Below, one piece after another: positions 37,776 to 42,343 of a stretch of 64,000 nucleotides of DNA. The stretch's first letter is position 1. Every line of letters begins with the position of its first letter. The position numbers and the translations under genes were made by a program. The stretch is from contig JBHLLF010000003.1 of NCBI GenBank assembly GCA_048885865.1, positions 96,001 through 160,000 of the forward strand, given 5' to 3'. The DNA is from Candidatus Hermodarchaeota archaeon. Lineage in GTDB: Archaea; Asgardarchaeota; Thorarchaeia; Thorarchaeales; Thorarchaeaceae. A model generated the notes under the pieces. The model was not told the origin of the DNA and did not search any database. It was given only the letters and a program-made list of their open reading frames with translations.

Positions 37776-38579
37776 ATGTCCGAGATCTTTGAAACCGGTA
37801 ACCGACGTCCAAGGCTCGACATCAATTATGCTGTTGAATGTGCGTCATGAGGCGTAGGTCGCATCGGTTTCTACATCAGACGCCTCGGACTGATAGATCC
37901 CACCGGAAAGGAACGACTACTGCTCAAGAATCCTGCTGACTATAAAGGCGGAATCTGGGCGTCTTATGTCGCAGATGGGACTGTAGCTGTCGTCGAGTCG
38001 ACAGAAGCTGACACCATCGCTGTCGTGGAGCGAAAGCAGAAGAAAGGTAGCCTAAGTCTAGTGATGAGCCATACACCTCAAGAATTCGAGGAACCTGTGG
38101 TCAACTTCACACTTGATTTATGGAGCTACAATAAACCTGTCTTGCTACTTCGGCATACGACAACAAACGTCAGTTCCAGCATGGTCCAAGACCTCAAGGT
38201 CTACAGCATCTTCGACTTCGATATAGGAGGTCCAATGAGCTACAAAGACGACATGGGCACCTATGACGAAAAGAACGGAATCGTCATTGCCTATGATGAA
38301 AGCCAGGTTTCTGTAGCCATTTCCTCACAGCCGAGTCCCGATGGCTGGGAGATATCATCTCCACTGAAGCTCAAGGTAGAATCAGATAAGCGCGACCTAA
38401 GGAACAATCCCGAAGCGGGACCGAAGGACATTGCCACCGGTCTGCAGTGCAACCTAGGCGATTTAAAGCCGGGTGATAGCAGTTCGGTGGATCTTGTCCT
38501 CGCCTCCGCGCACGGTCTTGACGAGGTTCGAAGCCTCATCGATATGTCATGGGGCTTCTTCAACAAGAAAATCCGATGA
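37776..38579 (+). CDS. Putative selenoprotein (267 aa, Sec at codon 25, CxxU motif), function unknown
   Basis: ATG 37776 is in frame with tracked ORF 38025-38579 (offset 249 nt). The only interruption is TGA at 37848-37850 in MSEIFETGNRRPRLDINYAVECAS*GVGRIGFYIRRL. A SECIS-like hairpin lies at the 3' end. Confidence 0.82.
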
Positions 38580-38621
38580 TATCTACACCTAAAGCAATGC
38601 GGTGTCGATGGAGGCCGGGTT
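38570..38621 (+). promoter_or_regulatory. Eukaryote-type SECIS element
   Basis: Helix I AATCCG/CGGGTT; core ATGA(38576-79)...GA(38611-12); helix II TATC-T-ACACC / GGTGT-C-GATG; AAA 11 nt after ATGA; apical GC-AAT-GC mini-stem. Confidence 0.8.
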
Positions 38622-38642
38622 GCAGCCCGCGGCAAGCAGTGG

Positions 38643-38692
38643 AAAAAAAGAGAATGAGAGGGGATTACTCTCGAAAGTGATCCCGCCTCTCA
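38643..38692 (-). terminator. Stem-loop plus T7 tract after the wHTH gene
   Basis: Minus strand TGAGAGG-CG-GGATCAC-TTTCGAGA-GTAATCC-CCTCTCA followed by TTCTCTTTTTTT. Confidence 0.6.
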
Positions 38693-39082
38693 CTTGTAAT
38701 ACTGTTCTTCGAGGAAGTTAGCCAACATTACAGCAGTTGCTGTAAGCTTTGCCAGCTGTCCTCTGTTTTCCATATCACCGCCAGATAGCAAACCCAAGTC
38801 CATTAAGGATCGCAGATTCCATTTCACAGTGCTATAGGCAACTGAAGTCCTGCGAGATACCTGGTCTGCTAATGCCGTCACTGTCAGATCATTATGCCTT
38901 AACAGCTGGGCACTCACTCTCAGAACGTATTTCTGAGTCTCACTCATTCTCATATCTGCTAGAGACAAGAATGACGCAGCGAGGCTCTCAAAAGAAGGCT
39001 TGGCGAAAGGTTCGTGACTCTCTTGGAATACCTGGTTGGCACTAGAGAATACATTCACCTCTTTGGCGAATTTGGCACTCAC
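38690..39082 (-). CDS. Winged helix-turn-helix protein
   Basis: LTVTALADQVSRRTSVAYSTVKWNLRSLMDLGLL...AKLT; start uncertain. Confidence 0.7.
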   Translation of the reverse strand: MSAKFAKEVNVFSSANQVFQESHEPFAKPSFESLAASFLSLADMRMSETQKYVLRVSAQLLRHNDLTVTALADQVSRRTSVAYSTVKWNLRSLMDLGLLSGGDMENRGQLAKLTATAVMLANFLEEQYYK

Positions 39083-41590: not shown

Positions 41591-42343
41591 TCAATCCTCT
41601 GCGCTGATTGAGCTAAGAGCCGCTTCAACTTCCTCCAATGATAGAGGCTTGAAGATTCGTTCCTCAGTATCGATCTTTCCAATCTCTACTCTTCGAGGTC
41701 GCTCTGCAGGTTCAAGACTTGCAATTTCGCCACTTTTTAGAAGTCCTCTGAGGGCTAGGTCAGTTGCTTCGGGAAGAGAGAGTTCTTCCTTGTCTTTGAG
41801 GCTCTCTTTGAAGAAATCACGAACATCATCTGCCTCTCTGCCAATAGCTGCAGCCTTCCAACCCCAGAAGGAACCAGAGGGATCTGTAGTGTATAGCTGA
41901 GGACCATCATGGTCAACACCGCCGACTAGGAGCGACACTCCGAATGGGCGGACTCCTCCGTACTGTGTATGCAATTGCTTAGTGTCACAAATGTTGACTA
42001 CAAGTGATTGAATAGAGATAGGTTCATCATAGCTCAGACGGTTAACCTGGGCTTGCACTCGCGCCTGGTCGATTAGCTTTCTAGCATCAGCATGCAAACC
42101 AGCGATTGCAGTCCCGACGTGGTCATCAATGAGCAGGATTTTCTTAAGGGTATCAAGATCGACCAAAGTGTGGGGAGAGCGTTTCTCTCCAGCCAAGACT
42201 ACGCCATCAGTAGCCTTGACTCCAACAGCAAGAGGCCCATGACGAACAGCCTCAGTTGCATACTCGACTTGATATAATCGGCCTTCAGGGCTAAATACCG
42301 TAATCGCGCGGTCATAGCCCATACTCTGTGTGGGACCAAACAT
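41591..42343 (-). CDS. psmA: Proteasome subunit alpha
   Basis: YDRAITVFSPEGRLYQVEYA signature, RPFGVSLL, TDPSG. Confidence 0.97.
   Translation of the reverse strand: MFGPTQSMGYDRAITVFSPEGRLYQVEYATEAVRHGPLAVGVKATDGVVLAGEKRSPHTLVDLDTLKKILLIDDHVGTAIAGLHADARKLIDQARVQAQVNRLSYDEPISIQSLVVNICDTKQLHTQYGGVRPFGVSLLVGGVDHDGPQLYTTDPSGSFWGWKAAAIGREADDVRDFFKESLKDKEELSLPEATDLALRGLLKSGEIASLEPAERPRRVEIGKIDTEERIFKPLSLEEVEAALSSISAED

Follow-up and report, generated by a model that had tools for sequence, protein, structure and literature searches.

A conserved Asgard-type SECIS whose core holds the stop codon of an uncatalogued selenoprotein gene in a Hermodarchaeota archaeon

Here we describe an RNA element at the 3′ end of a protein gene of Candidatus Hermodarchaeota archaeon (Thorarchaeia; GenBank assembly GCA_048885865.1). 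It lies in a window of 64,000 nucleotides (nt), positions 96001-160000 of contig JBHLLF010000003.1 (contig C3 of the 3.58-Mb assembly), and all coordinates below count from the first letter of this window unless another contig is named. We hold with high confidence that positions 38573-38629 form a genuine eukaryote-like selenocysteine insertion sequence (SECIS) of the Asgard type, serving the UGA at codon 25 (UGA-25) in the mRNA of the gene at 37776-38579. The comparison of orthologues establishes how it is built, that it is conserved and that it is linked to the internal UGA. The frame from ATG 37776 ends at TGA 38577-38579, and the ATGA of the SECIS core (38576-38579) contains this terminating TGA, as the original prediction, made from the letters of this stretch, had stated. 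The only internal TGA, at 37848-37850, lies 729 nt before the core.

Open reading frame (ORF) calling splits the gene into a stub of 45 amino acids (aa) and an ORF of 184 aa. When 400 genomes of the phylum were searched in six frames, 210 proved to have homologues of the host protein, including 68 of the 85 from the window's own family, and nearly all full-length matches contain a single stop, which is TGA. For protein and RNA comparison, 61 orthologues of the Thor type were extracted from related genomes, and the counts given below refer to them except where another set is named. At the position of codon 25, TGA is found in 60 and TGC (Cys) in one (L034), whose motif becomes C-x-x-C; U or C also occupies this position in distant homologues. 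The 24 residues that precede the TGA (MSE.LETGNR.PRLD..Y.VEC.S) are conserved as strongly as the downstream part of the protein. On this comparison, UGA-25 is best read as a coding selenocysteine (Sec) codon and not as a stop, which agrees with the earlier view of a transcript with two UGAs, one recoded within a C-x-x-U motif and the other terminating inside the core. Public protein predictions for the homologues all start after the Sec codon, one pipeline translated the codon as W, and public annotation treats the N-terminal stub as a separate gene. The closest database proteins carry the label Candidatus Thorarchaeota.

The genome also encodes a tRNA-Sec (59 bits) with SepSecS adjoining, and its SelD gene has an in-frame TGA; judged by this gene content, the organism uses Sec. 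The matched parts of its FlpD/MvhD and HdrA-fused genes contain no in-frame TGA, and they provided no further SECIS examples.

The element itself follows one layout in all 61 orthologues: [A/G]UGA and a variable arm come first, then an A-rich loop (in most, GUAAAGC...GCA) and a complementary arm, and last a 3′ core that is GA in all except five, which have UA or AA. Their MAFFT alignment shows no variation at the core U, G and A, at one adenine of the loop, or at the A and G that come after the helix. Helix II (UAUCUACACC/GGUGUCGAUG) spans 10 positions, of which one is a U x C mismatch and another a U.G pair (U38580.G38610). Its eight Watson-Crick pairs are 93.4% paired and all eight show two-sided changes, in 8-33 sequences per pair; none of 500 shuffles matched this covariation, and shifting the partner columns cuts the pairing to about 40%. 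Furthermore, RNAalifold predicts the same eight pairs unaided. The comparison thereby bears out the helix of about 10 base pairs (bp) with one mismatch that had been folded by hand (38580-38589/38601-38610), as well as the G.A/A.G core (G38578 A38579/G38611 A38612) and its unpaired adenines. The latter belong to a UAAA at 38590-38593, directly after the 5′ arm, in which A38592 never varies and the bases beside it are at least 90% conserved. In the five sequences with UA or AA for the 3′ GA (L056, L061, L065, L077 and L078), the second sheared pair varies naturally.

At the level of sequence, the core has the make-up of a canonical kink-turn (k-turn): a canonical stem (C-stem), a G-A-U loop, tandem G.A/A.G pairs and a non-canonical (NC) stem. 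Alignment columns 20-60 (C38574-G38613) are C-G in every orthologue, columns 19-61 (C38573-G38614) are found as C-G, G-C, U-A and A-U with 23 two-sided changes, and a third C-stem pair is U-A in 38 sequences. At the position next to the core (here U38580.G38610) the pair is non-Watson-Crick in 36 of the 61, as expected of a k-turn NC stem. The mini-stem that had been drawn in the apical loop, giving the element a type II-like appearance, is weak: its 2 bp are 91% paired, but no compensatory change occurs in the model-fitted alignment (one cell in that of MAFFT) and the stem is broken in four of the seven sequences of the window's genus.

Table 1. Positions in the window of the host gene, its Sec codon and the parts of the RNA element
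Feature	Position	Strand	Remarks
Selenoprotein gene	37776..38579	+	267 codons plus UGA stop; orthologues align over residues 1-267
Sec codon, U25	37848..37850	+	Motif E-C-A-S-U-G-V-G-R (C-x-x-U); context ...YAVECAS-U-GVGR...
Hairpin in coding sequence, GAAGCCUCAU.../...AUGGGGCUUC	38530..38558	+	Just upstream of the SECIS
k-turn C-stem, 5′ strand (C, C)	38573..38574	+	Within the last two sense codons
k-turn loop G-A-U, three bases	38575..38577	+	A conserved in at least 90%, U invariant; U38577 is base 1 of the stop codon
Core G, A	38578..38579	+	Tandem sheared pairs with A38612 and G38611; stop bases 2-3; invariant in 61/61
Helix II, 5′ arm UAUCUACACC	38580..38589	+	First position U.G, in place of the non-Watson-Crick 3b.3n pair
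Apical loop UAAAGCAAUGC, 11 nt	38590..38600	+	Conserved adenines; 2-bp GC/GC mini-stem possible
Helix II, 3′ arm GGUGUCGAUG	38601..38610	+	8 Watson-Crick pairs with the 5′ arm
3′ core G, A	38611..38612	+	G in at least 90%, A invariant
k-turn C-stem, 3′ strand (G, G)	38613..38614	+	G38613 invariant
Accessory hairpin CGGG-UUGCAG-CCCG	38616..38629	+	5′ arm is the CGGGUU strand of the earlier helix I

Behind the k-turn stands an accessory hairpin with the family consensus NNGGG-NAGCA-CCCNN, which is 83.2% paired and has 39 cells with two-sided changes, where shuffles give 13 +/- 4. Most lineages also have an outer helix around both, in which the codons for K-K-I (AAGAAGAU) pair with AUCUUCUU behind the hairpin and which completes a three-way junction. 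This helix has been replaced in full in several sequences, by GCCGAGAG/CUCUCGGC in L079, GGCAAGAAG/CUUCUUGCC in L033 and GACAGGAAA/UUUCCUGUC in L076, and the mean energy of its arms is -8.4 kcal/mol for cognate pairs, -5.3 for non-cognate pairs and -3.5 for shuffled ones. The accessory hairpin is not described in Mariotti 2016 (PMC4989117) or in Huang 2024 (PMC11227280), the word "hairpin" being absent from the text of the latter, and a full-text literature search for a SECIS with a three-way junction returned nothing relevant.

The same design recurs behind other genes. In SelD the stop lies inside the SECIS core in all 22 genomes of the family that have been compared (in this genome on contig C20, with the stop TGA at 42095; in its relatives at loci L098-L118). 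There a type II SECIS is followed by a hairpin with a GCGA, GCAA or GUGA loop, and the outer helix, GAGACCG/CGGUCUC, has the compensatory variants GAGGCCG/CGGCCUC, GAAACUG/CAGUUUC and GAGACUG/CAGUCUC. Moreover, an unannotated small gene resembling VhuU (DCULSCGAH) is found on the minus strand of contig C19, at about 11374, behind the gene for a [NiFe] hydrogenase large subunit. Its Sec codon precedes the stop by 96 nt, the stop is the UGA of the AUGA core, and an outer helix (GACUGGCG/CGCCAGUC), the SECIS and a CCC-GCAA-GGG hairpin are again present. Among distant homologues of the host protein, the 17 sampled from family f22 all carry, 11-32 nt after the stop, a textbook lokiSECIS, the form described from Lokiarchaeota (Mariotti 2016, PMC4989117). 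It is enclosed by helices of the AAUCC/GGAUU type and followed by a small hairpin (with a GNRA loop in those inspected), and 15 of the 17 proteins show an in-frame U in the N-terminal motif ...A[T/L]-U-N..GY. No SECIS was found in the four homologues sampled from family f21, which have C-x-x-C.

A covariance model of the host family, R1, recovers all 61 sites at 47-95 bits and finds exactly one site in the window's genome, the 38573-38629 element (62 bits, E 8e-13). It found neither the SelD nor the VhuU SECIS of that genome, and is thus family-specific and unusable as a general SECIS detector. A loose SECIS pattern gave 170 matches in the 3.58-Mb genome and 78 after shuffling; taken bare, the pattern does not rise above chance. 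It missed SelD because the stem there is bulged, and when a filter for ORF context was added only the 37776-38579 locus stood out. What raises this element above chance is that it is conserved and covarying.

Several observations weigh against taking the element for a SECIS, or against parts of the structure given here. To our knowledge, no SECIS-binding protein is known in Archaea. The unconstrained minimum-energy fold of RNAfold, one of the checks proposed with the original prediction, lacks the structure, preferring other pairings (z = -0.7), and the window's copy of helix II contains the internal U x C mismatch. No SECIS family of Rfam matched between 37000 and 39500 at E values up to 10. 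The original prediction had listed the lack of a covariance-model hit among the results that would speak against it; as a refutation this is invalid, because SECISearch3 and older models fail on accepted Asgard SECIS elements (Mariotti 2016, PMC4989117; Huang 2024, PMC11227280). The two further tests named there, covariation and conserved stop overlap in orthologues, came out in its favour, with changes at 8/8 helix II pairs and the core UGA as stop in 60/61. The expectation that Cys-encoding forms should lack the element holds for the four of f21 and fails for the Cys form L034 (genome G345), where core (AUGA/GA), helix II and accessory hairpin all persist. The apical loop of L034 is divergent (UUGAAAGAAAAGGAU) and its outer helix is missing, and the whole looks like a SECIS in early decay. 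Finally, the window's genus is without the outer helix (about 0 kcal/mol, with flanks taken to 48 nt upstream and 105 nt downstream), which leaves the lower part of the window's copy uncertain.

Two alternatives would deny the element its role in recoding altogether. In one of them UGA-25 would be a true stop and the locus a pseudogene or two ORFs, with a protein starting, for instance, at GTG 38025, as the gene callers annotate it. This seems to us hardly credible: the 24 codons upstream of the TGA and the 58 between it and GTG 38025 are conserved as protein across 61 genomes (39-97% identity), each match has one stop, a TGA in the same column, a Cys counterpart exists, and a structural model of the protein (see below) places residues 1-40, with high confidence, as two strands of the sandwich. 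In the other, the element would be a general 3′-end structure, either a hairpin for transcript ends or stability or a regulatory k-turn bound by L7Ae, and not a Sec signal. The frequency of the bare pattern (170 against 78 shuffled), the U-rich tracts that follow the element in many orthologues and the extent to which L034 retains it would suit such a view. Nevertheless, we regard it as very improbable, given that SelD and VhuU have SECIS elements, and f22 a lokiSECIS, matching it in core, A-rich loop and length of helix, that the four Cys forms of f21 have none, and that R1 finds no other copy in the genome.

Two other alternatives accept the Sec signal and concern its extent. The original prediction had closed the element with a helix I, AAUCCG at 38570-38575 with CGGGUU at 38616-38621, and such a two-helix fold, with a GGC bulge on the 3′ side and no separate hairpin, might be right at least for the window's genus. 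It is as good as the hairpin in the window's copy, even slightly more stable (-15.3 against -13.4 kcal/mol), and it is recovered by minimum-energy folding under constraints; all seven sequences of the genus allow AUCCG to pair with CGGGU, and the loss of the outer helix there makes a replacement lower stem conceivable. Since the energies are alike within the genus, the choice between hairpin and helix I for the window's copy rests on homology, and homology makes helix I improbable in our estimation. It pairs in the window's genus only, with 50.6% of cells paired across the orthologues, and competes with C38574-G38613, which is C-G in 61/61 and next to a covarying pair; the hairpin, NNGCA loop included, persists in the genus and everywhere else; and within the genus helix I shows no compensatory change. 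Judging from the orthologues, helix I should be replaced by the canonical k-turn stem and the accessory hairpin. A less radical proposal limits the SECIS proper to the k-turn hairpin and leaves the accessory hairpin and the outer helix outside recoding, as a terminator or as mRNA protection. The genus manages without the outer helix, L034 has kept the hairpin with a Cys codon, and published models require just core, stem and loop. We think this somewhat unlikely, in view of the three-part covarying layout, which recurs after three selenoprotein genes unrelated to one another and in two distant families of Asgard archaea, the fixed spacing to the core, and the kinds of loop (GNRA in SelD, VhuU and f22, pentaloops containing GCA in the host family). 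With nearly even weight for and against, we tentatively propose that the Asgard SECIS is a k-turn set in a three-way junction, whose hairpin and closing helix would be functional and whose CGAUGA would be read by a protein of the L7Ae family replacing SBP2.

Compared with the eukaryotic SECIS (RF00031, SECIS_1), the element shares the AUGA/GA k-turn core, the unpaired adenines about 10-11 nt further on and the distant upstream UGA, but has no Rfam match at E 10, a shorter helix II and an overlap with coding sequence and stop. With the methanogen SECIS it has in common an archaeal host, a place close behind the gene and the action on an upstream UGA; it lacks the GAA_A bulge and the consecutive G-C pairs of the short upper stem, and its AUGA...AAA...GA core upholds the earlier assignment to the eukaryotic and Asgard type, not to the methanogen type. 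In its letters the 5′ strand, CGAUGA, resembles box C (RUGAUGA), and CGAUGA...GA-G would give the C-G pair, the G-A-U loop and the G.A/A.G pairs just as box C and box D (CUGA) do in the box C/D k-turn bound by archaeal L7Ae. That k-turn belongs to a guide RNA, the present one to a three-way junction of an mRNA.

Among archaeal elements, the lokiSECIS is close in its AUGA, its stem of about 9 bp, its A-rich loop of about 11 nt, its GA and its position at the gene end (Mariotti 2016, PMC4989117). The lokiSECIS loop starts with AAAAA and ends with AG, whereas the window's loop, UAAAGCAAUGC, starts with UAAAG, has three A only in that run and ends with GC; the element agrees in AUGA, stem length, 11-nt loop and GA, and the f22 homologues agree in all features. 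The paper does not list the host family and describes neither accessory hairpin nor outer helix. In the eSECIS-like model of Huang 2024 (PMC11227280) a core GA_[G/A]A and an upper stem of 7-15 bp with at most 2 mismatches carry either an apical loop of 8-20 nt (type I) or a bulge of 4-12 nt, a mini-stem of 2-8 bp and a loop of 2-6 nt (type II). The window's element lies within the bounds of every criterion of both types, as type I with its 11-nt loop and as type II with UAAA, GC/GC and AAU, and its place also agrees with that model, which looks for a Sec-using genome and a gene whose in-frame UGA encodes Sec, with the element at or behind the gene's 3′ end. The same work reports G[U/G]AAA loops in frhA of Thorarchaeia and lower-stem motifs in frhA and selD; an internal loop and a lower stem are named in its text, a second hairpin is not. 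According to the Asgard SECIS literature, including Mariotti 2016 (PMC4989117), no SBP2 is known in Archaea.

The overlap between stop and AUGA is real and conserved, since the core UGA is the stop codon in 60 of the 61 orthologues, and it is already published for Asgard archaea; what had been singled out as the unusual point of this locus is therefore confirmed as a fact and not as a novelty. Indeed, AUGA doubles as the UGA stop in VhuU.1 of Loki (Mariotti 2016, PMC4989117), and stops often overlap AUGA in the survey of Huang 2024 (PMC11227280), where the SECIS search was extended 30 nt into the gene because such overlaps are frequent. With this overlap, the last sense codon is constrained to C-N-[A/G], its C being the invariant C of the k-turn and its third base the one that precedes UGA. 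The exception is L079, whose reading frame does not meet the UGA of the core and closes with the UAA within the apical UAAAGC; in homologues of family f30 the stop is likewise a UAA in the apical loop. Both L079 (genome G315) and L081 (genome G308) have the [A/G]UGA core out of frame, and there the last five codons form the 5′ arm of the SECIS.

Within the family the offset of the SECIS from the stop thus varies, with the stop in the apical loop, in the core, or 11-32 nt upstream, and these three offsets are a series, made by nature, on which the minimal recoding distance can be measured. In L127 and L128, UGA stops lie only 15-18 nt before the core. Recoding is placed at 729 nt (the 37776-38579 gene) and 96 nt (VhuU), and termination at 0 (the host family, SelD and VhuU) and at 15-18 nt, distances which bracket the minimal-distance rule. 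The idea behind the suggestion that the locus offers a natural test of that rule is not new: it was derived from Loki VhuU.1 (Mariotti 2016, PMC4989117).

The host protein has no Pfam or NCBIfam match. An AlphaFold2 model built with 48 orthologues (predicted local distance difference test, pLDDT, 93.9; predicted template modelling score, pTM, 0.92) shows an all-beta fold with a C-terminal helix, and Sec lies in the turn of the first beta-hairpin. Foldseek aligns the model, at template modelling (TM) scores of 0.6-0.68, with the supersandwich at the N-terminus of GH94 phosphorylases, GH15 glucodextranase, GH116 and GalM. Seven selenoprotein families have been catalogued in Asgard archaea (Huang 2024, PMC11227280; May 2026 review), and the present one is absent from them and from further published accounts; it is a selenoprotein family that the published Asgard catalogues have missed. 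Membership in the Prx-like Asgard selenoproteins, which have a thioredoxin fold and a U-x-x-C redox box, was considered and rejected because the fold is an all-beta supersandwich and the motif order is C-x-x-U. In long multidomain relatives, Pfam shows only PKD, Ig-like and transglutaminase neighbours, which give no functional clue.

Distant homologues from other Asgard families (L085, L087 and L119-L137; about 290-340 aa) have a short conserved N-terminal peptide with an in-frame UGA, and those of family f21 have C-x-x-C instead of it. The distant homologues end in a conserved C-terminal Cys (..WCK, ..DCK, ..EGC) that is absent from the Thor-type proteins, and which could be a resolving cysteine.

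Two further hairpins flank the element. The one in the coding sequence (Table 1) varies in its arm sequences between lineages, and in 54% of the orthologues the equivalent of 38530-38558 ranks in the top 10% of the ORF's 40-nt windows for stability; it may be an accessory or fourth helix, or an element resembling a Sec-codon redefinition element (SRE). Downstream, between two convergent genes, a long hairpin at 38656-38691 (GAGAGGGGAUUAC.../...GUGAUCCCGCCUCUC) overlaps the stop of the minus-strand gene 38690-39082 and may be a shared 3′-end structure.

As for the mechanism, the stem of C38573-G38614 and C38574-G38613, the G-A-U loop and the pairs G38578.A38612 and A38579.G38611 make up the k-turn, topped by a helix of about 9 bp with its A-rich cap and followed by the accessory hairpin of 38616-38629. 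We propose that, once folded, the element would bring the Sec-specific elongation factor of the archaeon, together with Sec-tRNA, to ribosomes translating upstream of it, either directly or by means of a k-turn-binding protein, possibly of the L7Ae type, and the UGA at codon 25, 729 nt upstream, would then be read as selenocysteine. To arrive at the last codons, a ribosome would have to open the outer helix and the C-stem and strip the 5′ arm of helix II from its partner, and with UGA 38577-38579 in its A site that arm would be held in the mRNA channel. The SECIS being unwound at the terminal UGA, the signal would be gone and the release factor would terminate. We infer both the binding partners and this self-inactivation at the stop.

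The problem of how Archaea, and the ancestors of eukaryotes, couple an RNA signal at the 3′ end to a distant UGA without SBP2 is still unsolved, and this locus provides a clean and deeply conserved example of it, in which, as the core reads as a canonical k-turn, binding of L7Ae is directly testable. Beyond what was reported before (Mariotti 2016, PMC4989117; Huang 2024, PMC11227280), it adds a host protein family with a beta-supersandwich fold and the accessory hairpin. That this hairpin and the outer helix are common to three gene families suggests that the published SECIS models are incomplete. Furthermore, gene callers truncate the host protein in every public genome examined, and the selenoproteomes of Asgard archaea are under-counted as a result.

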